From: an uncultured Bacilli bacterium
GTDB taxonomy: Bacteria > Bacillota_I > Bacilli_A > RF39 > UBA660
Length of the DNA: 64,000 nucleotides
Assembly (NCBI GenBank): GCA_934096715.1
Contig: CAKOMQ010000002.1
Location: 24,132-88,131, forward strand
Direction of reading: 5' to 3'
Position numbers and translations under genes: made by a program. The notes beneath the pieces were generated by a model. The model saw only the letters and a list, made by a program, of their open reading frames with translations. It had not been told where the DNA came from and searched no databases. Shown piece by piece: positions 6,658 through 62,127 of the stretch. Position 1 is the stretch's first letter. Every line of letters begins with the position of its first letter.

Positions 6658-7314
6658 TTAATTATAAAATTCTTTTATATAATCATCCATATTACTTTTT
6701 ATAAATCCATTCATTACTAGTTCACTACTAAGTTTTTCACTTAATCCTTTACTCATTAAATAATTAACTTGTTCTGTGTCTACTCCGCTAATAGTGGCAC
6801 TATGATTTGCTTCCACTTCATTGCTATCACATACAATAATTGGATCTATTTCTATATATCCATGAGTTATTATTCCCTTAACAGATTCACTCAAATAATT
6901 ATCTTTACTACTTTTATTTATATTAGCCCTTACAACTATACTAGATAATCCATTATTAGATATATTCTTAATTAATATATCAGTCTTATTATTATCATCT
7001 TCTATATTATTTACTACTTCTAAATAATTATCTTCTTCATTTACATAAGAATAATTAAAATTAATACTTGAATTACTAGTTTGATTAATCTCAATATATT
7101 TTAATTTGCATACATTATAAATATAAATATCAAGTTTACTATTATCTTTCATATTTATAACTAAATTTTCTATATTTTGATTAACTATATATATAATAGA
7201 TTCTCCATATACATTTAAGAGTATTTTACTATCTTTAGTAGTTAAGTCATTTATACTATTATTAATATCAATATTACTATTTACTAATATTTTATTCACA
7301 TTCTTCATAATCAC
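6658..7314 (-). CDS. sufD: SufD-like Fe-S assembly protein (short, 218 aa)
   Basis: C-terminal SufB/D signature (...YLMSKGLSEKLSSELVMNGFI). Lies between sufC and sufS. Confidence 0.65.
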   Translation of the reverse strand: MIMKNVNKILVNSNIDINNSINDLTTKDSKILLNVYGESIIYIVNQNIENLVINMKDNSKLDIYIYNVCKLKYIEINQTSNSSINFNYSYVNEEDNYLEVVNNIEDDNNKTDILIKNISNNGLSSIVVRANINKSSKDNYLSESVKGIITHGYIEIDPIIVCDSNEVEANHSATISGVDTEQVNYLMSKGLSEKLSSELVMNGFIKSNMDDYIKEFYN

Positions 7315-17752: not shown

Positions 17753-17975
17753 ATATCCTAAATTAATATATAGTAAAAGTCAAGAAAAAAAGTTCGCCTT
17801 TTTTCGACAAAAATAATTAATTTATATTAATTTATGGCATATTTACCGAAAATTTTATTTTCAAAAAAGCATATATTTCTTCAAGTTTTTTTAGAAATTT
17901 ATGTAAAACTCTTGCAATTACAAGAATTTTCTTGTATAATTCTAATTGTCTTATACAAATAAGACAAGTGCCTAT

Positions 17976-27641: not shown

Positions 27642-27672
27642 ATCACTACTTAATTATACCTTAATTTATCAA

Positions 27673-28500
27673 TTAAAACAAGATAAGTAGCTTGCCAAAT
27701 TTATCATATAAAGAAATTCTTTCGTTATCATACATAAATAATCTATATTTAGAATAACTTTCTAGTTTAACACCATTCTTTACCATCTTTAGTAATTCTA
27801 AATCACAGTTAATAACTTCAATATTCAAAACATCTTCTAAATCTAAGAGTTCATAATTACCACAATTTATATCTTCTAGAGTATAACTATTCTCTATAAA
27901 GAAGTTACCCTGTTTAGTACGTACTAAACTACTCATTGTACCTAAGACACCTAACTTATTACAAATATCCTTTATAAGACTTCTAATATAAGTACCTTTA
28001 CTAACAACACATCTAAACTTAATTTCATCATTCTTATACTCAATTAACTCTATTTCTTTTATATCTACTTCTCTTTTTGGAAGATCAACTTCTATATTAT
28101 TTCGAGCATATTCATATAATCTTTTGCCATTAACATGTATAGCACTATAAATTGGAACCTCTTGAATACTTTTACCTAGAAATGTCTTTATAGTGTCATC
28201 TATAAAAGAAGTTTCTAATACTTTAGGACACTCACTCTTTAATACATTACCAGTAATATCAATAGTGTCTGTTTCAATACCAAGTTTAATTGTAGCAACA
28301 TATTCTTTATATTCACTAGTAATTATATCAACTAACTTAGTATATTTATTAATACACACAACAAGTACACCAGTAGCAAGTGGATCTAAAGTACCAGTAT
28401 GTCCTATTCTTTTAGTGCCAAAAAGAGATGTCAATTTATTAACAACATCTCTACTTGTCATATTAATATCTTTATTTACTACTAAAATTCCATTTTTCAT
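27673..28500 (-). CDS. truB: tRNA pseudouridine(55) synthase
   Basis: GHTGTLDPLATGVL catalytic-Asp motif. Position in the nusA-infB-rbfA operon. Confidence 0.85.
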   Translation of the reverse strand: MKNGILVVNKDINMTSRDVVNKLTSLFGTKRIGHTGTLDPLATGVLVVCINKYTKLVDIITSEYKEYVATIKLGIETDTIDITGNVLKSECPKVLETSFIDDTIKTFLGKSIQEVPIYSAIHVNGKRLYEYARNNIEVDLPKREVDIKEIELIEYKNDEIKFRCVVSKGTYIRSLIKDICNKLGVLGTMSSLVRTKQGNFFIENSYTLEDINCGNYELLDLEDVLNIEVINCDLELLKMVKNGVKLESYSKYRLFMYDNERISLYDKFGKLLILF

Positions 28501-33310: not shown

Positions 33311-35596
33311 TTATTCTACCAAAATGTAGGGATTATCATAACTACCATTTCCAGATTTAACAATAACATCACTTGTTAAATAAAATACCGGACGAAAAGC
33401 AACATTGCTATTAGTGAAATCGACACTTTCTAAATTACCTGATGCATTAATTGCCCAAGAACTAAATCCACCAATATTATGATCAGCACCTAATACAATC
33501 ATAGTCCATTCTGTATTAATAATGTTTCCAGAATTTTTATAATCTGTATTAGAAGGTGATAACCAACTATTTACCAAAGAATTAGAATTAATTGGAGCTG
33601 TTAAGTCTGCTTCAGCAGAAAACACATAATCACTTGCATACATCAATCCTATTTTAGCTTGATATGTTTCATATGCAGTTGGAGAACATGGAATCGAGGC
33701 ACTAGCATTAGAATAACAATAATCAGAACCAATATTATTTTCAGTTAAATAAATACCAATCAAAGGAGATACGGTAAAATCGGGTCCACCACCCATGTTG
33801 CCATAAGTACTTACACTATTCCATGTCCAATTTTCTATTTTATTTAACCATATTGTATCTTGTAAATAACTAAATTTGGTGCTTGTAAGAAAATATTTTC
33901 CATTTAATCCTTGATAAATTTCACTATAATTAAACAAGGTATCTTCATCACTAGAATTGAATGAAATTGAACCTAACTGAGAAAATTTTATAAGTTTAAC
34001 ATGGTATGTTCCACTCGAATCAGGAAAAACTCCAATTACTCGATACAGATATTGCTGATAATTTGTCTTACATGTTGCTTGATCAGTTGTTCCGAAACAT
34101 ACAAAATTAGAAACCGAAGCATCTGCCCCAACAGCACGATACCCATCATTTATTCCCAATCCAGAGTTTTCTAACAAATTTAAATATTTACCGGAATTAA
34201 TTAAATAATCATTAAAATATTTTTCTGTCTCATATGAAATAGAAGAATGTATAATAAATCCAAGGTCATCAATAACATGTACATAATATAGACCATCCGA
34301 ATTCATAGTATAATTAATTGAATTAGATGTTATACTTTTCCATGAACATCCACTTATACTAAGTTTGTTATTAATACAATACTTTGTTAATGCTCCTTTT
34401 CCTTTTGTAAAATTAGCAGTTAAAACATTTTTATTTTTTGATAAAGATATTTTTAAAGACGACTCATCACTATTAGAACTATCAATTATTAAAAATGGAT
34501 TTTCTAAAGAACCATCTCCAATTCCACCAGCAACATTACTTTTTAAATAAAAGACAGGTCTAACACTTTCAGTATTAGTATAATAATTATATCCAATAGC
34601 ACCATCACTACGTACATCCCACGAATAATATTTGCTACTCCATAAATCATGATTTGCAATAGTCCATTCGTTATTACTATCATCATTATTGCCTAAATGA
34701 ATCCAACCTGTTTTTAATGTTATTTTACTAGGACCAGTTGACATAGACAATGCAGAAGAACCTAATGATAGTGCATAATCACTCATATATAGTAATCCAA
34801 TCTTTGCTACAGGATTTGTCCATGTTCCACCGCTACAATTAATTACAGTACTATTTATATTCATGCATAATTTATCAGAACCGTTTTTATGCATTTCATT
34901 CAAATACACGCCTTTTGGAGAACTACTAGTATATGAAGGATTACTTGATGTATTAATTCTAGTTTGAGTATTAACTGCACTCCATGTCCAATTCTCTATT
35001 TTATCACTCCACATAGCATTTTGCAGATAATTATAGGATGTATTTGTTAAAAAATAACTTCCATTTAAACCTTTATACAAATCACTATTTTCCCAGTTAG
35101 TTTTTGAATTTGTTGAATTCCACTCATATCTTCCTATAGATTTATATTTAATTAATTTAACATGGTTATCTCCATTTTCATCTGCAAACACTCCGATTAT
35201 TCTAAACATATATTTATCTTGTTTTGCTATACATTCCGATTTATCTGTTGTACCGAAACAAATAAAGTTATTTGGATTTGTCGATTCATCCACTGCACCA
35301 CTTCCAACATAACGATATCCATCGCCTACCAAATTACTTTGATACAATTCTCCCATGGTTATTAATTTATCACTAAGTAATTGCTCTTTATATTTATCAA
35401 AATATAAATAACACATACTTGTTTCTGATACTTTAACTGTAGCTTTCTTTTTATCTTGATCATATAAAAGAGAATCTTCTATTTGTTTACCATTTGAAGA
35501 CATACATCCTGATTTAGTTTGATTATAAAAATATTCATAACCAGGAAAAGTAGAATTAGTACTTTCTTGATAATTACCATTTGAATCTTCTATCAT
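33311..35596 (-). CDS. Large (761 aa as annotated) Asn/Ser/Thr-rich surface-protein body made of two homologous halves. It is currently separated from its signal-anchor coding segment (35667..35807) by a +1 frame offset at the G10 tract.
   Basis: Internal duplication (YRYVGSGAVDES..FICFGTTDKSEC..HVKLIKYKS..KIENWTWSAV versus YRAVGADASVSN..FVCFGTTDQATC..HVKLIKFSQ..KIENWTWNSV). Each half ends RPVFYL.S.V...G.GS..NP[FY]. ATG 35596 has no RBS and no signal peptide. Confidence 0.7.
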   Translation of the reverse strand: MIEDSNGNYQESTNSTFPGYEYFYNQTKSGCMSSNGKQIEDSLLYDQDKKKATVKVSETSMCYLYFDKYKEQLLSDKLITMGELYQSNLVGDGYRYVGSGAVDESTNPNNFICFGTTDKSECIAKQDKYMFRIIGVFADENGDNHVKLIKYKSIGRYEWNSTNSKTNWENSDLYKGLNGSYFLTNTSYNYLQNAMWSDKIENWTWSAVNTQTRINTSSNPSYTSSSPKGVYLNEMHKNGSDKLCMNINSTVINCSGGTWTNPVAKIGLLYMSDYALSLGSSALSMSTGPSKITLKTGWIHLGNNDDSNNEWTIANHDLWSSKYYSWDVRSDGAIGYNYYTNTESVRPVFYLKSNVAGGIGDGSLENPFLIIDSSNSDESSLKISLSKNKNVLTANFTKGKGALTKYCINNKLSISGCSWKSITSNSINYTMNSDGLYYVHVIDDLGFIIHSSISYETEKYFNDYLINSGKYLNLLENSGLGINDGYRAVGADASVSNFVCFGTTDQATCKTNYQQYLYRVIGVFPDSSGTYHVKLIKFSQLGSISFNSSDEDTLFNYSEIYQGLNGKYFLTSTKFSYLQDTIWLNKIENWTWNSVSTYGNMGGGPDFTVSPLIGIYLTENNIGSDYCYSNASASIPCSPTAYETYQAKIGLMYASDYVFSAEADLTAPINSNSLVNSWLSPSNTDYKNSGNIINTEWTMIVLGADHNIGGFSSWAINASGNLESVDFTNSNVAFRPVFYLTSDVIVKSGNGSYDNPYILVE

Positions 35597-35666
35597 AACA
35601 GCAAATAAATCACTACTAGATGTAGACGCACCAAAAATATATTTATCTAAATTTTTATTATTATAA

Positions 35667-35807
35667 GATATATAAGCACCAATTATTAATAATAATTCTA
35701 TTAAAGTAAGTGCAATAATTAAAGTTCTTTTGTGTTGTTTCTCGCCCCCCCCCCAGTAGGCTTTTTAGCTTCTGGAAGGTTGCTAATAAATTAGCATTTC
35801 TTTTCAT
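35667..35807 (-). CDS. 5' leader ORF (46 codons) of the surface-protein gene: MKRNANLLATFQKLKSLLGGG... With 10 G it terminates early. With 9 or 12 G it reads MKRNANLLATFQKLKSLLGGGEKQHKRTLIIALTLIELLLIIGAYISYNN... straight into the 761-aa frame.
   Basis: Manual translation of the minus strand. Upstream ATG (35807) to the ATG at 35596 is 211 nt, which is 1 mod 3. RBS-like GAAAGTGAG upstream. -35 TTGAAA, 17 nt, -10 TATCAT upstream. Confidence 0.65.
35745..35754 (-). repeat. Homopolymeric G10 tract (C10 on + strand) inside the 5' coding region of the surface-protein gene. Candidate slipped-strand phase-variation switch.
   Basis: 10 consecutive C/G in a ~25% GC genome. Reading-frame analysis as above. 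Flanks conserved with the 479-488 locus. Confidence 0.85.
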
Positions 35808-46576: not shown

Positions 46577-46678
46577 TTTATACTTCCTTTATCCATTTTA
46601 TTTTAACACACTAATTCACAAAAATATATTGAAAATTAATATTTTTTGTTGTATAATCTATTTACAGATGTGAGTTAT

Positions 46679-46932: not shown

Positions 46933-46983
46933 CGCCATGAGCAAGTTAATTATAACTAATTTTTACATAAAATGCAAGTCTAA

Positions 46984-49043: not shown

Positions 49044-49099
49044 ATTGCTATTTAATTATAGTAAAAGTTTATGAAAATGTCAATCGGTTTAATACTAAT

Positions 49100-56649: not shown

Positions 56650-57360
56650 CTATTTAAATGAATATAGAGTTTTTATTTCTTTAAGTGACAACTCTCTATA
56701 GTCACCACTTTTTAAGTCTCCTAAAGTTAAGAAAGCATAACCTTCTCTTTTAAGTTTAATTACATCATAATTTAGTGTTTCAAATAATCTTCTTATAATA
56801 TGATTTCTTCCTTCATGAATAGTTATTTCTACAATAGAAGTATTATTTTTCTTATCTAAACTTCTAAGTTTTATAAAGTCTACTTCTACTACTCTTCCAT
56901 CTATTTTTATACCTTTTTTTATTCTAATACTATCTTCTTTACTAAGTATTTTATTTAACTTAGCTATATAAGTTTTCTTAATATTATTTTTAGGATGCAT
57001 TAATATATTAGCTAGTTCTCCATCATTAGTTAAAAGTATTAAACCAGTCGTATCATAATCTAATCTTCCAATAGGATATATTCTTTCATTAGTCTTAATT
57101 AAGTCTACAACAGTTTTTCTATTTTTATCATCACTTACAGTAGATACAACTTCTCTTGGTTTATTTAAAACATATACTCTTTTAGCTACTTCCTTATTTA
57201 TACTAATATCGTCTATTGTAATAATATCACTTCTACTAGCTTTATCACCTAAACTAACAACTTCTCCATTAACTTTAACTCTACCATCAATTATTAGTTC
57301 TTCTGCTTTTCTTCTCGAAGTATATCCATATTCTGCAATTAATTTTTGAATTCGCTCCAT
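56650..57360 (-). CDS. rluB: RsuA/RluB-family rRNA pseudouridine synthase with S4 domain
   Basis: N-terminal S4 domain. Catalytic core motif (IGRLDYDTTGLILLTND). Confidence 0.8.
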   Translation of the reverse strand: MERIQKLIAEYGYTSRRKAEELIIDGRVKVNGEVVSLGDKASRSDIITIDDISINKEVAKRVYVLNKPREVVSTVSDDKNRKTVVDLIKTNERIYPIGRLDYDTTGLILLTNDGELANILMHPKNNIKKTYIAKLNKILSKEDSIRIKKGIKIDGRVVEVDFIKLRSLDKKNNTSIVEITIHEGRNHIIRRLFETLNYDVIKLKREGYAFLTLGDLKSGDYRELSLKEIKTLYSFK

Positions 57361-57420
57361 CTAAATCACATCCGAGACAATTATATCATGCTTCAAACAA
57401 AATAAAAAGGTAGATTATAA

Positions 57421-58026
57421 TTATCTACCCATTTCTTGTTCTTTACGGCCAAAAGTATTTTCTGCAAAAGAATAACAAGCATTAAGGATTTCATCTTGAC
57501 TATATCCACGTTTTAGTAAAGTATCCATATATAACTTCTTTAATACTTCAAGTTGTTCTTCAACTGACTTAGTTTCAATATCATCTGGTAACTCAACATG
57601 TTCTCCAAAAATATCTGCATAAAATGTATAAGTGGTAGAAAGACTATCATCATAGCGTTTTGTTGTTTCTTTTATAAAATCTCCCATTATACATCCTGGA
57701 CGATTATTAAGTCTGTCATTAACAATCTTATAATCATCTTCACTAGCAACTTCAGGAATATCTAATTCAGATGTATATCCTTCAGATATTTTTAAGAATT
57801 TATTAAAAGTATCCGCTCTAAGCTTATTTTCGGCAACAAATAATTGATCAAGTTTTAAATCTTCTTTTTGCTCTTCAGTAAGATTATCAAAGTCAATTGT
57901 AGAAATTCCATTTTCATCTACAATTTGTGGATAAGTTGGATTAAATCCAGTATCATAAACATCCTTTCTTTTTAAATATTCATTTTGCAATAATGACATT
58001 AAGTCTTGTGGCTTATTATTTTTCAT
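57421..58026 (-). CDS. Hypothetical acidic cytoplasmic protein (201 aa)
   Basis: ORF. RBS AAAGGAGATG. Confidence 0.45.
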   Translation of the reverse strand: MKNNKPQDLMSLLQNEYLKRKDVYDTGFNPTYPQIVDENGISTIDFDNLTEEQKEDLKLDQLFVAENKLRADTFNKFLKISEGYTSELDIPEVASEDDYKIVNDRLNNRPGCIMGDFIKETTKRYDDSLSTTYTFYADIFGEHVELPDDIETKSVEEQLEVLKKLYMDTLLKRGYSQDEILNACYSFAENTFGRKEQEMGR

Positions 58027-58052
58027 AATTCACATCTCCTTTACACCTTCAT

Positions 58053-58076
58053 TATATATATATATATATATATATA
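58053..58076. repeat. Perfect (TA)12 dinucleotide repeat forming the 17-bp spacer of a TTGTAT/TATAAT promoter for the 57421..58026 gene (minus strand)
   Basis: 24 nt of uninterrupted TA. On the minus strand: CTCTTG-(TA)12-ATGAAGG, giving -35 TTGTAT, 17 nt, -10 TATAAT. Confidence 0.8.
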
Positions 58077-58121
58077 CAAGAGTTAATTAATTATAAGGTG
58101 TAAAAATGTGTAAATATACAT

Positions 58122-58643
58122 TTATCCAAAGAATACATAAGTAATTGTAAATGCCATAATAATTCCAACTAAATCTGCAAATAATCCTACTGATAGAGAA
58201 TGCCCTATTTTAGATATTTTAACACTTCCAAAATAAAGTGCTAAAACATAAATCGTTGTATCAGTACATCCTTGTAATACACTAGCAAGTCTTCCTGCAT
58301 AACTATCAGGACCAACATTCTGAAAAATATCATTCATAATAGCTAATGATGCTGTACCAGAAATAGGCCTTAATAAAGCCATAGGAATTATATCTAAAGG
58401 TATATTTAATTTAACAAATAAAGGATTTAAAAATGATAATAAAAAGGTAAGTACATTACTATCTAAAAAGATGTTTATCGCAAATACCATCGCAATAACT
58501 GCAGGAAATATACTAAAAGTAGTCATTAATCCTTCTTTAGCACCTTCTAAAAAAGTATCATAAAGATTAACTTCTTTCTTAAATCCATAAAGAATTATAC
58601 CAAGAACAAATATAGGTATTATTACTAAAGATATTATATTCAT
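58122..58643 (-). CDS. spmB: Spore maturation protein B
   Basis: Membrane protein. Conserved dacB-spmA-spmB order. Confidence 0.75.
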   Translation of the reverse strand: MNIISLVIIPIFVLGIILYGFKKEVNLYDTFLEGAKEGLMTTFSIFPAVIAMVFAINIFLDSNVLTFLLSFLNPLFVKLNIPLDIIPMALLRPISGTASLAIMNDIFQNVGPDSYAGRLASVLQGCTDTTIYVLALYFGSVKISKIGHSLSVGLFADLVGIIMAFTITYVFFG

Positions 58644-59221
58644 AATTTTTTTCTCTTTCTAATAATATAATCAAGAGTTACACCAGCTATACATGAACAA
58701 GTTGTTGCAATAATTGCTGGAAGTATTATCTCCGAAGGATTCATTGAATTATAAGTAGTTCTAAGAGCTAATATAGTTGTTGGAATAATAGTAACACCAG
58801 CTGTATTTAAAACTAAAAAAGTAATCATTGGAGTCGACGCTGTATCTTTTTTATCATTAATCTTTTGAAGTTCATTAATTGCTTTTAACCCTGCTGGAGT
58901 TGCTGCGGAACCTAAACCCATCATATTAGCAGCTATATTACTAGCAATATAGCCAAGAGCTTTATTATCTTTAGGAACACTTGGAAATAATCTACTTAAA
59001 AGTGGTTTTAAAAGATGAGCAAACTTGTCTAATAACCCACTCTTTTCAGCAATTTTAAGAATACCTGTCCATAAAACAATAATAGGTAGAAGTTCTAATA
59101 TTAAGTCAAGTGCATCATTTGCATTCGTTAAGATACTATTATTTATAACTTCAATATTACCGGATAGCAGCGAATAAATTATACCTGATGCAATTAAAAA
59201 TAACCAAATATAACTAACCAT
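58640..59221 (-). CDS. spmA: Spore maturation protein A
   Basis: MVSYIWLFLIASGIIYSLLSGNIE... resembles SpmA. Translationally coupled to spmB. Confidence 0.75.
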   Translation of the reverse strand: MVSYIWLFLIASGIIYSLLSGNIEVINNSILTNANDALDLILELLPIIVLWTGILKIAEKSGLLDKFAHLLKPLLSRLFPSVPKDNKALGYIASNIAANMMGLGSAATPAGLKAINELQKINDKKDTASTPMITFLVLNTAGVTIIPTTILALRTTYNSMNPSEIILPAIIATTCSCIAGVTLDYIIRKRKKL

Positions 59222-60267
59222 TATTTTCTCCCTTTAAATTTATCTACATATTTTTTTATATATATAGGTTCTTTATGATATAAATTATCTTTTAAATATA
59301 TATTTGCATATCCAACAATATCATCATTATTAAAATGTTTATATTTAATAAGTTCTATTTTAATTAAAACATCTTTTCTTTCACTTTTTTTAAGAGTCAT
59401 ATTATAATCATTTTTAATATATAATTTATATTTCTTATAATACTTTTCTTTTTTTATTTTAAATCTATCTTTATCTAATATATTAAAACTTTTATATTCA
59501 CTAAATACTTTTTTATAAAGAGTAATATGATCACTAAAATCATCTGGATCATTAAGAGTAACTACCACTACATTAATATTATTCTTACTACCAGTAGTTA
59601 CTAAAGTTCTTCTTGCTTTCTTTGTAAATCCAGTTTTACCACCAGTTACAAAATCATATTTTAATAGTTTATTTTTATTATGCCAAACATAAGTCATCAT
59701 ACTGGTTTCACATTTATATTTTTTTGTTTTAAATATACTTCTAAAAGTAGGATTTTTAATAGCATAACTCGTAAGTAAAGCCATATCATAACTACTTGAT
59801 TTATTACCGTTACCAAATTTATCTTCAAGACCATGTGGATTAATAAATACCGTGTTGGTCATTTTCAAGTTATTAGCATATTCATTCATCATATATACAA
59901 AGTTATCTACTCCACCACCAACATACTCGGCAATCATTAATGCTGCATCATTTCCACTTCTTAACATAAGTCCATATAGTAAATCTTTTAATTTTATTTC
60001 TTCTCCTACTTTAATATATATTCCACTACCAAAAGATTCTTTTACTTTATCAGTTACTTTAACTGTATCTTCTATATTAGCATTTTCTATCGCTACAATA
60101 GCGGTCATTATCTTAGTAATACTTGCAATTAATCTAGAATCATTTTGATTATATCCACTAAGTACTCTTAAATTATCAGTATCCATTACAACCATACTAC
60201 TTGCACTTATAGAGAATACATTTAATGGAAGTATTAATAAACTTACTACAAATAATATCTTTTTCAT
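59221..60267 (-). CDS. dacB: D-alanyl-D-alanine carboxypeptidase (sporulation-type DacB)
   Basis: SxxK (SITK), SGN (RSGNDA), KTG (KTGFT) motifs. Signal peptide. Confidence 0.85.
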   Translation of the reverse strand: MKKILFVVSLLILPLNVFSISASSMVVMDTDNLRVLSGYNQNDSRLIASITKIMTAIVAIENANIEDTVKVTDKVKESFGSGIYIKVGEEIKLKDLLYGLMLRSGNDAALMIAEYVGGGVDNFVYMMNEYANNLKMTNTVFINPHGLEDKFGNGNKSSSYDMALLTSYAIKNPTFRSIFKTKKYKCETSMMTYVWHNKNKLLKYDFVTGGKTGFTKKARRTLVTTGSKNNINVVVVTLNDPDDFSDHITLYKKVFSEYKSFNILDKDRFKIKKEKYYKKYKLYIKNDYNMTLKKSERKDVLIKIELIKYKHFNNDDIVGYANIYLKDNLYHKEPIYIKKYVDKFKGRK

Positions 60268-60318: not shown

Positions 60319-62127
60319 TTATATATATTTATTTATTACTTTCATTAAATCATTTATTTTAACTGGTTTAGCTATATAATCATCAAATCCTTTTCTTAAA
60401 TAATTCTTTCTATCTCCACTTTTAGCATTAGCAGTAAGTACAATTATTGGTTTATTATAATTATAATTATCTTTAAGTACTTTCATTGCCTCTGTACCAC
60501 TCATCTCAGGCATCATATCATCCATTAAAATCAAATCATAATCTCCTGTAACAGCCATGTCTATTCCATTTTTAGCATTTAAACAAGTATCAACATCATA
60601 GTTTTTTCTTTCAAGTAGTCTTCTTTCTACTTTTAAATTAATCTCATTATCATCAATAATTAAGATCTTTTGCCCACTTGCATTAACTATTTCTCTTTCT
60701 TCTTTTACTTCTTCCTTATTTAAATCTAATCTTTCGTATTTCTCAGTTAAATAAACGGTAAAGATACTACCTACATTTAACTTACTTTGAACAGTTATTT
60801 TACCACCCATCATTTCAACTAACTTTTTAGTAATTGCTAAACCTAGTCCAGTACCTTCAATTGTTGAGTTAACATGTTCACTATCTCTAGTAAACTTATC
60901 AAATAATTTATCAATCATTTCATCTTTAATACCTACTCCAGTATCTTCAACTTTAATTATAATCTTACAATTTTTATAATCATTAATAGAATTAACTGAT
61001 ACAACTATCTTGCCTTCTTGAGTATATTTACAAGCATTAGATAATAAATTAGATACAATTTCTTTTAACTTACTTTTATCACCATAAAGTACTTCAGGTA
61101 GATCACTTCCATAATTAATAATTAAATCTACTGGTTTATCTTTTAATTTTATTTTAATTATATTAGCAACTTCTTCAATAGATGATCTAATATTATAGTT
61201 CTTTCTAGTAATATCTACTGTACCAGATTCTATTTTAGATATACTTAATATACCTGTTACAATATCTAATAAATTAGTAGATGCATAAGATAAATCATCT
61301 AGTATTTCCATACCACTTTTACTAAGTTTTTCATCTTGTAATAAAGATATAGATCCAATAACTGCATTAAGGGGTGTTCTAATTTCATGAGACATACTAG
61401 ATAAGAATTCTGATTTAGCACTATTAGCTTTCTCTGCTTGATTCTTAGCATATTCTAATTTTCTTATTAATTCTATATCAGGATTTTCAATTGTAAAGTA
61501 CATTATAAAAAGTACAATTGAATGAACTATTGGAGATATTATTACTTCTGAAAAATAATTATCTATTATTATAGACACTATTGAGCCAAGAAAAAAAGCC
61601 ATTAAAGGAATATACTTCTTTGGCTCTACCTTCTTAATATTAAATAACATTATAAATAACGAATAGATAATTAATGCCATGTAGTAATAGAAGACAAAAT
61701 CTACGCTTATTCCACTAGTATAATTATCAATAATATTAATCGGTAACACAAGTACTATTCCAGTTGTTATAAGTGCTAAAACTATATAAATATTAGCAAA
61801 TATATCTTTAACATCATTACTAGATATATAATGTATATAATAAGTAATTAATATTGAAAACCAGATTGTATAAATTAAGTTAAATTTACCTAAAGATACT
61901 AATATTAGAGAATTTTTAGACAAATAAAAACACAATATATTAAAGATTAAAAGAGAAAAAAGACCTACTAAATTAATTAGTAGTAAACTTGAATATATTT
62001 TAATTTCTTTATTAGATATATGTTTTTGTTTGAAGTATACAATAGATAATACTCCCATATATATTAAACTTATTAATACCATAACCAATGTCATTTTTAT
62101 AATCACCTTACTAATTTTATCAATCAT
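60319..62127 (-). CDS. Hybrid sensor histidine kinase: multi-TM N-terminal sensor, HisKA, HATPase_c and C-terminal receiver domain
   Basis: H-box SHEIRTPLNAV, G-boxes, receiver with conserved DD...D...K pattern (ILIIDDNEIN...ILMDDMMP). Confidence 0.8.
   Translation of the reverse strand: MIDKISKVIIKMTLVMVLISLIYMGVLSIVYFKQKHISNKEIKIYSSLLLINLVGLFSLLIFNILCFYLSKNSLILVSLGKFNLIYTIWFSILITYYIHYISSNDVKDIFANIYIVLALITTGIVLVLPINIIDNYTSGISVDFVFYYYMALIIYSLFIMLFNIKKVEPKKYIPLMAFFLGSIVSIIIDNYFSEVIISPIVHSIVLFIMYFTIENPDIELIRKLEYAKNQAEKANSAKSEFLSSMSHEIRTPLNAVIGSISLLQDEKLSKSGMEILDDLSYASTNLLDIVTGILSISKIESGTVDITRKNYNIRSSIEEVANIIKIKLKDKPVDLIINYGSDLPEVLYGDKSKLKEIVSNLLSNACKYTQEGKIVVSVNSINDYKNCKIIIKVEDTGVGIKDEMIDKLFDKFTRDSEHVNSTIEGTGLGLAITKKLVEMMGGKITVQSKLNVGSIFTVYLTEKYERLDLNKEEVKEEREIVNASGQKILIIDDNEINLKVERRLLERKNYDVDTCLNAKNGIDMAVTGDYDLILMDDMMPEMSGTEAMKVLKDNYNYNKPIIVLTANAKSGDRKNYLRKGFDDYIAKPVKINDLMKVINKYI

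Follow-up and report, generated by a model that had tools for sequence, protein, structure and literature searches.

The hifA/hifB promoter of Haemophilus influenzae carries a tract of (TA)9-11 (van Ham et al., 1993, via PMC2651432, PMC3899988), and dinucleotide changes in the promoter spacer switch the transcription of Vmm (Persson et al., 2002, via PMC10502178, PMC2628566, PMC3053259, PMC10448532). In the Mycoplasma mycoides cluster, poly-TA of more than 10 repeats is found before lipoprotein genes (PMC3053259). Promoter-spacer switches made of homopolymers are known from porA of Neisseria meningitidis (poly-G) and vlp of Mycoplasma hyorhinis (poly-A) (PMC3899988, PMC10502178), and in hmw1A of H. 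influenzae a hairpin of the heptamer repeat in the transcribed 5' untranslated region (5'UTR) is processed by RNase III (PMC12721329). Here we describe a perfect (TA)12 tract located directly upstream of orf201, a gene for a 201-aa protein, in a stretch of 64,000 nucleotides from an uncultured Bacilli bacterium (GenBank assembly GCA_934096715.1, contig CAKOMQ010000002.1, positions 24,132 to 88,131 of the forward strand; hereafter the window, G+C content about 25%). The sequence and its natural variants suggest that the tract is probably a slipped-strand switch of the promoter spacer, that is, a simple sequence repeat (SSR) contingency element within the core sigma-A promoter of orf201.

The (TA)12 tract and the geometry of the candidate promoter

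An earlier reading of the window from its letters alone (the sequence-only reading) had described a (TA)12 repeat that exactly fills the 17-bp spacer of a TTGTAT-N17-TATAAT promoter. This geometry proved exact, both in the sequence and in the output of Tandem Repeats Finder (58053-58076, period 2, 12.0 copies, 100% matches). The minus strand of the 95-nt gap between spmB and orf201 reads ...TTTACACCTTATAATTAATTAACTCTTG(TA)12ATGAAGGTGTAAAGGAGATGTGAATTATG, with CTCTTG immediately before the repeat. The tract accounts for the whole 17-nt spacer, for 3 nt of the -35 element and for 4 nt of the -10 element, and 24 nt separate the -10 element from the orf201 start codon. The elements of the locus are as follows.

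58053..58076, minus strand: (TA)12 dinucleotide tract, a hypermutable element (Tandem Repeats Finder, sequence, and length polymorphism among contigs)
58074..58079, minus strand: proposed -35 element TTGTAT, with TTG from the fixed flank and TAT from the first 3 nt of the tract
58073-58057, minus strand: spacer of 17 nt, repeat only (sequence)
58051..58056, minus strand: proposed -10 element TATAAT, the last TATA of the tract plus a fixed AT
58044, minus strand: putative transcription start, a G 7 nt past the -10 element (usual -10 to +1 distance)
58036..58042, minus strand: Shine-Dalgarno (SD) sequence AAAGGAG, 9 nt 5' of the ATG (sequence; TAARGGAG in the homologous module described below)
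58026, minus strand: ATG of orf201 (sequence)
57421..58026, minus strand: orf201, gene for a 201-aa acidic orphan protein (open reading frame (ORF) list, family searches)

Chance does not explain the tract. Under a first-order Markov model, 6e-6 TA runs of at least 12 units are expected in the window, where the next longest TA or AT run has 5 units, with (TA)5 tracts at 7186 and 59257, and about 96 kb from twelve related low-GC genomes contain one (TA)6 and no longer TA run. The -10 TATAAT is invariant in all 50 loci of the two modules whose tract could be read, and the TTG adjoining the tract is kept in both orf201 alleles and in the module of the distant homologue.

Several other signals at the locus were considered. 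A second TATAAT (58095-58090) was rejected as a promoter, its sole -35-like partner being a TTTACA 13 bp away, and it was unlisted by the promoter scan. A mini-ORF directly after the tract (ATG-NNN-NNN-TAA), kept in both modules, was treated as a coincidence, because its ATG is the end of the -10 element plus one base, its TAA is the start of the SD sequence, and it has no SD sequence of its own. Inspection by eye, the only method applied to this point, gave no convincing match to promoters of sporulation sigma factors at the locus.

Promoter form of the host

The generic promoter scan required the -35 element to match TTGACA in at least four of six positions. TTGTAT matches in three of six, and for this reason the site is missing from the list. 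In the surrounding 4 kb the scan returned 30 promoter-like sites (31 expected), and it says little either way because shuffled sequence yields as many sites. A pattern taken from the host was more informative: TTG-N20-TATAAT occurs 13 times in the window (5.3 expected; 13 occurrences were reached in one of 100 shuffles). When TTG...TATAAT spacers from 11 to 23 bp were counted, 17 bp was the sole enriched length (13 vs. about 5.3 simulated), and spacers of 15 and 21 bp were found once each (about 5.4 expected). Because only the 17-bp spacing is enriched, the 12-unit site falls into the promoter class of the host, and sites with 11 or 14 units do not.

Five of the 13 sites lie 40-64 nt 5' of the five tRNA genes of the window. 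Their -35 hexamers are TTGACA, TTGAAA, TTGCAT, TTGCAA and TTGTTT, each followed by N17 and TATAAT.

17912-17940, 27653-27681, 46629-46657, 46949-46977 and 49055-49083: TTGNNN-N17-TATAAT before the five tRNA genes

An Rfam search of the window found tRNAs only. Intergenic DNA holds eleven of the 13 sites. In four of these eleven, the TA-tract site included, a start codon follows at 20-31 nt, so a leader as short as that predicted for orf201 is normal for this genome. Judged by these sites, TTGNNN-N17-TATAAT is the organism's own promoter form, and the objection that TTGTAT departs from the consensus is largely lifted by the host's own tRNA promoters. As a general observation, the tRNA and protein-gene promoters suggest that this organism keeps strictly to a spacing of 17 bp and uses very short leaders.

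Tract length variation within the species

Contigs carrying the locus were traced in metagenomes and metagenome-assembled genomes (MAGs; one source was the NCBI MAG GCA_977040245.1) through the exact orf201 protein and close variants of it, and were assigned to one species because their flanks are 93-100% identical to the window. Samples with this locus include ERR11565287, ERR7747394, ERR13302734 and SRR29133601 and the runs behind ERZ28615127 and ERZ28615552. The tract was readable in 19 loci including the window, in each case from a consensus contig sequence. Two alleles of orf201 were found among them, with a protein identity of 69-75%, a synonymous divergence (dS) of 0.38 and indels; their flanks are 98-100% identical in nucleotides. 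Contigs are numbered with the letter L.

12 units, 17-bp spacer: the window, L001, L004, L005, L006, L016
11 units, 15-bp spacer: L002, L003, L007, L008, L009, L010, L012
14 units, 21-bp spacer: L018 (contig starts inside the TTG)
Allele 2, CTTGTA duplication with 9 units (or 10, G>A variant), TTGTAC-N17-TATAAT: L013, L014, L015
Allele 2, 15-bp spacer: L019
Allele 2, 15-bp spacer by the tract-adjacent TTG, 21 bp by the other TTG: L011
All carriers of the second allele: L011, L013, L014, L015, L019

The number of uninterrupted TA units is thus 9, 11, 12 or 14 across the 19 loci, with 10 in one G>A variant, and nine loci have a 17-bp spacer, nine a 15-bp spacer (L011 counted by its tract-adjacent TTG) and one a 21-bp spacer. 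The sequence-only reading had staked the switch on a unit number that differs between strains, and the tract length does differ among contigs of the same species, including contigs that are otherwise identical. Two contigs with 11 units show no difference from the 12-unit window outside the tract (L009, 0/1160; L010, 0/824), and L016, with 12 units, has nine differences from the window and three from the 14-unit L018. Changes in tract length recur, and they are faster than point mutation. In allele 2, a 6-bp duplication is offset by three fewer TA units and 17 bp is restored; CTTGTA plus 9 units would thus form a second route to the 17-bp spacing. The tract is uninterrupted in all loci read, apart from this duplication at the allele 2 edge and a TG in two contigs of the homologous module (L097, L102).

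Of 20 contigs, four (L014, L015, L017 and L018) are broken off at the tract or close beside it, which is compatible with heterogeneity and also with low coverage. A scan of Joint Genome Institute (JGI) metagenomes with a pattern of exact flanks and a variable gap found no match.

A homologous TA-tract module upstream of a distant relative

An exhaustive HMMER search among 1.8 billion representative proteins returned only two relatives of the orf201 protein, allele 2 and a protein designated P0009 (188 aa, 32-35% identical). The P0009 gene follows a gene for RmuC or for a zeta toxin and precedes a convergent Mur ligase gene. Only two samples are shared between the sample lists, so the gene probably belongs to another species, one that is more prevalent. 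The P0009 coding DNA can barely be aligned with that of the window (dS 0.79). The sequence-only reading had proposed a comparison with related loci, and the TTG-(TA)n-TATAAT module is kept upstream of P0009, where the sequence is CTTGATTT(TA)nATGAAARTATAAGGGAGGAATATTTTTATG and the module has the form TTGATT-(TA)n-TATAAT-GAARGTRTAAGGGAGG-ATG. The TTG, an uninterrupted TA tract, the TATAAT formed across its 3' end and the distance of the SD sequence are all preserved, the initial transcribed regions resemble each other, and the -10 element is 25 nt from the ATG (24 nt at orf201).

The tract of the P0009 module also varies, from 6 to 12 units across 31 contigs, and its length differs between contigs that are identical over 2000 nt. 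In L083, which has a 17-bp spacer, TTGATT-N17-TATAAT passes the generic promoter scan (10/12). In L097 and L102 the tract is interrupted by TG, and its total length gives a spacer of exactly 17 bp; this interrupted tract may be a locked-ON form. Of all the evidence for a function, this module is the strongest: long TA runs are very rare in these genomes, and yet an uninterrupted and still variable tract has been inherited in distant homologues in the same place within the promoter, which speaks for its maintenance by selection.

In addition, the P0009 module was seen in one species with two alternative upstream neighbourhoods (L076-L082, positions 1-1378, vs. L075, L083 and L086-L105), which hold either a Zeta_toxin protein and a 105-aa ORF or a VTT-domain protein and RmuC.

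The product of orf201

The sequence-only reading had called the downstream gene a 201-aa acidic hypothetical protein, a description that holds: the isoelectric point (pI) is 4.48, and no match was obtained in Pfam, NCBIfam, PHROGs or PADLOC. The protein is also absent from the phage collections that were searched. An AlphaFold2 model (predicted local distance difference test (pLDDT) 86, predicted template modelling score (pTM) 0.80) gives a compact alpha/beta protein, for which no similar structure was found in PDB or BFVD. Its N-terminus, MKNNKPQDLMSLLQNEYLKRKD, has no hydrophobic signal and no lipobox cysteine, and by its sequence the product is not a surface protein of the usual switch-cargo kind. 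The ratio of nonsynonymous to synonymous divergence (dN/dS) between the two alleles is 0.44, indicating purifying but relaxed selection. The divergence of the alleles begins inside orf201 and not at the TA tract, and the intergenic region is nearly identical in both. Such a deep split points to balanced polymorphism or to the import of a segment.

The proposed switch and the points against it

The observed geometry, the local promoter archetype, the natural length polymorphism that outruns point mutation and the conserved module fit a switch that would work as follows. Replication slippage would add or remove TA units and shift the distance between the -35 and -10 elements by 2 bp per unit. 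With 12 units, TTGTAT-N17-TATAAT would have the standard form of the host, the presumed ON state; 11 units (15 bp) or 14 units (21 bp) would give a promoter that is weak or OFF. The transcript would begin about 7 nt past the -10 element, have an 18-nt leader holding the SD sequence, and end at a hairpin on the orf201 stop codon. We infer that the promoter is active, that expression depends on the number of units, and that within a clone the switch turns frequently and in both directions. Because the transcript would stop at the hairpin, the switch is proposed to control orf201 alone.

57398..57430, minus strand: terminator-like hairpin GGGTAGAT-N7-ATCTACC, then TTTTTATTTT (T-run), overlapping the orf201 stop codon

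The sequence-only reading had extended the control, as a possibility, to rluB, the next gene downstream. With a terminator-like hairpin and T-run overlapping the end of orf201, this extension is unlikely.

Several points weigh against the proposed switch. Genes switched by SSRs mostly encode surface proteins or belong to restriction-modification systems, and the orf201 product is acidic and has no signal peptide. Heterogeneity within a population is not visible in consensus contigs, the source of all tract lengths given here. The window-like haplotype has 12 units in all six of its independent assemblies, so the switching rate is not extreme. In the P0009 module, the spacer is 17 bp in only three of 31 contigs, with a mode of 15 bp and many of 11-13 bp; this spread could reflect mostly OFF populations or neutral stepwise drift. 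The same module has an upstream candidate promoter, TTGAAA-N17/18-TACAAT, that would put the tract in the 5'UTR. Finally, the window has no terminator-like site between spmB and orf201, and for this reason read-through could express orf201 at any tract length; in the window allele, a stem around the tract could still lower the translation of such transcripts.

Alternative explanations

An unlikely alternative is neutrality: the tract would be a hypermutable microsatellite that arose as a TA run in AT-rich intergenic DNA and drifts in length without consequence for expression, and its likeness to a promoter would be incidental. The tract lengths of both modules are compatible with stepwise drift, and promoter-like hexamers are common in DNA of 25% GC, as the counts of the generic scan in 4 kb illustrate (30 vs. 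31). However, long TA runs are otherwise absent from the window and from the 96 kb of its relatives, and the tract keeps its position relative to TTG and TATAAT, 24-25 nt before the ATG, in homologues that are nearly unalignable. The 17-bp form is, moreover, specifically the enriched promoter class, and the 6-bp duplication of allele 2 is matched by three fewer units so that the spacing returns to 17 bp.

Rather improbable, too, is an effect at the RNA level, in which the tract would be transcribed, either between the spmB and orf201 cistrons or in a longer 5'UTR, and the (UA)n hairpin and its stem would tune mRNA stability or translation, with no switch involved. The missing terminator upstream of orf201 and the upstream candidate promoter of the P0009 module would allow such a transcript, and the RNase III-processed hairpin of hmw1A offers a precedent. 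In the window, a (UA)12 hairpin is enclosed in a stem of 10 bp in which AAGGUGUAAA(G), from the SD region, is paired (-24.5 kcal/mol, z-score = -4.5). The arms of this stem form an inverted repeat that brackets the tract.

58095..58104, minus strand: upstream arm of the 10-bp inverted repeat, TTTACACCTT (z-score = -4.5)
58040..58049, minus strand: downstream arm of the 10-bp inverted repeat, AAGGTGTAAA, overlapping the 5' part of the SD sequence

The outer stem is not conserved, however. The z-scores are -0.97 and -0.29 in allele 2 and from -1.1 to +2.0 in the P0009 module, and the sole change in the downstream arm, G>A in allele 2, disrupts base pairing and does not compensate for another change. 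A conserved RNA structure around the tract was therefore ruled out, the stem being weakened in allele 2, absent from the P0009 module and thus specific to allele 1; the inverted repeat is probably not essential. What is kept between the modules is the arrangement of TTG, tract, TATAAT and SD sequence at the DNA level. In addition, the generic scan listed no promoter candidate 5' of the tract in the window.

Gene neighbourhood and an accessory-gene junction

The genes around the promoter-spacer switch proposed for orf201 are all on the minus strand.

60319-62127, minus strand: hybrid histidine kinase
59221-60267, minus strand: dacB
58640-59221, minus strand: spmA
58122..58643, minus strand: spmB, the gene upstream of orf201, in the dacB-spmA-spmB cluster
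56650..57360, minus strand: rluB (S4 and PseudoU_synth_2 domains), the gene downstream of orf201, probably on a separate transcript

Sporulation genes near the locus are dacB, spmA, spmB and spoVS. Related loci were collected by a GTDB search with RluB, in which the species itself was not retrieved. The top match shared 61% identity and came from among MAGs that bear the labels Bacilli bacterium and Clostridium sp. CAG:628; the twelve closest GTDB loci all lack both orf201 and a TA tract. In these relatives rluB follows either spmB directly (dacB-spmA-spmB-rluB) or unrelated accessory genes located between spmB and rluB, so orf201 is an insertion at a variable junction, and by its gene content the spmB-rluB junction is a hotspot of accessory genes. 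A third alternative, that the tract simply marks the edge of a cassette at a recombination or insertion hotspot, could draw on these arrangements, on the unrelated genes that two relatives have at the same junction and on alleles of orf201 far more diverged than their flanks, but it is very improbable, since the divergent segment starts inside orf201 and not at the tract, the variable upstream context of the P0009 module (RmuC or zeta toxin) joins about 100 nt 5' of its tract, and no transposase, integrase or direct repeats were seen.

Some further variation was observed in this region. The proteins encoded at the spmB-rluB junction in the two relatives are a 440-aa ATPase-like protein (L023, 2668-3990) and a 315-aa protein (L024, 2985-3932). 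The window, L001 and L004 have, 5' of dacB, a gene for a hybrid histidine kinase/response regulator of about 600 aa; in L002, L003, L011 and L012 (positions 1-700) a Peptidase_S51 protein of 238 aa is encoded there, and between these strain types nucleotide identity falls to about 55% at this gene. The spmB of one sample is divided into ORFs of 77 and 111 aa (L005, 1564-2086), and in another the spmA call is a fragment of 94 aa (L013, 2103-2387). These may be frameshifts, pseudogenes or assembly errors.

Other repeat tracts in the window and possible significance

A C10 run (G10 on the coding strand) is located at 35745-35754, in a genome of 25% GC whose A and T runs all stay below 9 nt. The run falls within the 5' part of one gene (minus-strand ORFs 35661-35807 and 33311-35596). 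With G10, an ORF of 48 aa (MKRNANLLATFQKLKSLLGGG...) ends early; with G9 or G12, reading continues through a hydrophobic segment into an ORF of 761 aa that has no Pfam match. The G10 looks like either a frameshift-type phase-variable tract or a homopolymer assembly error. A second C10 run is present at 479-488, with similar flanks (CCTACTGGGGGGGGGG on the minus strand, AAAARC before). An M16 peptidase gene precedes it, about 85 nt further 3' begins an ORF whose start resembles a signal peptide (MKNMNKKQLIVVAFTFALLLLIGG...), and a terminator-like hairpin is located in between. No Rfam match was obtained here.

It is a tentative possibility that orf201 and its homologue represent a small family of switchable accessory genes, each with its own TA-tract promoter, and that together with the G10 tract they form a multi-locus set switched by SSRs. 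Variable junctions, deeply diverged alleles and a confident fold with no detectable relative are the reasons that point to such a travelling family, whose profile would fit a role in conflict (phage defence, immunity or anti-defence). If this is true, the TA-tract genes and the G10 at 35745-35754, which is out of frame at the start of a gene for a large membrane protein, would be a multi-locus SSR-switched set in an uncultured, non-pathogenic gut Bacilli species.

Comparison with known systems

As in the class of SSR promoter-spacer switches, the tract at orf201 is uninterrupted, lies between -35 and -10 elements (a position assigned by sequence only) and is polymorphic between strains. The sequence-only reading had equated the locus with the hifA/hifB switch. 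The part of this comparison that stands is the mechanism: in both cases a TA tract separates the -35 and -10 elements, so that each unit would shift the spacing by 2 bp and alter transcription initiation. The bidirectional fimbrial promoter has no counterpart here. The hif promoter serves divergent fimbrial genes of a Gram-negative pathogen, whereas that of orf201 would be unidirectional and serve a single gene that encodes no adhesin; spmB, orf201 and rluB are all on the minus strand, no plus-strand gene is suitably placed, and the product lacks a signal peptide.

The porA and vlp switches resemble the orf201 locus in that a simple repeat in the spacer between -35 and -10 sets promoter strength through slippage. 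They differ in their steps of 1 bp, which allow graded levels; because its steps are 2 bp, the TA tract reaches only every other spacer (15, 17, 19, ...). The likeness to hmw1A is an intergenic SSR whose length alters expression, which makes it the model for the RNA-level alternative, but its long hairpin is conserved, and at orf201 the one structure shared by every variant is the self-hairpin of (UA)n.

The poly-TA promoter-spacer switch of Vmm and Vmc is a closer precedent than hif. In both systems the promoter region directly 5' of a single gene contains (TA)n of about 10-16 units, the hosts are very AT-rich members of the Bacilli/Mollicutes branch, and several genes of one lineage can bear such tracts. 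A poly-TA of at least about 10 units in the adjacent promoter is thus present at orf201, and the variable surface lipoprotein expected as its product is not: Vmm and Vmc are surface lipoproteins, whereas the orf201 protein is acidic and has neither signal peptide nor lipobox. Moreover, the host of orf201 comes from the human gut, is uncultured and has sporulation genes close to the locus, and switching has been shown experimentally for Vmm, whereas the orf201 locus is known from sequence.

To our knowledge, nearly all documented cases of SSR-driven phase variation come from cultured pathogens. The orf201 locus is a well-supported candidate in an uncultured commensal of the human gut, and the gene it would control is no surface antigen. 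If the switch proves real, searches for phase-variable genes of commensals should take in TA tracts beside invertible promoters. Most likely the mechanism is of a known type, and what sets the locus apart from the described systems is its host, its unusual cargo and a tract length polymorphism already visible in public metagenomes.

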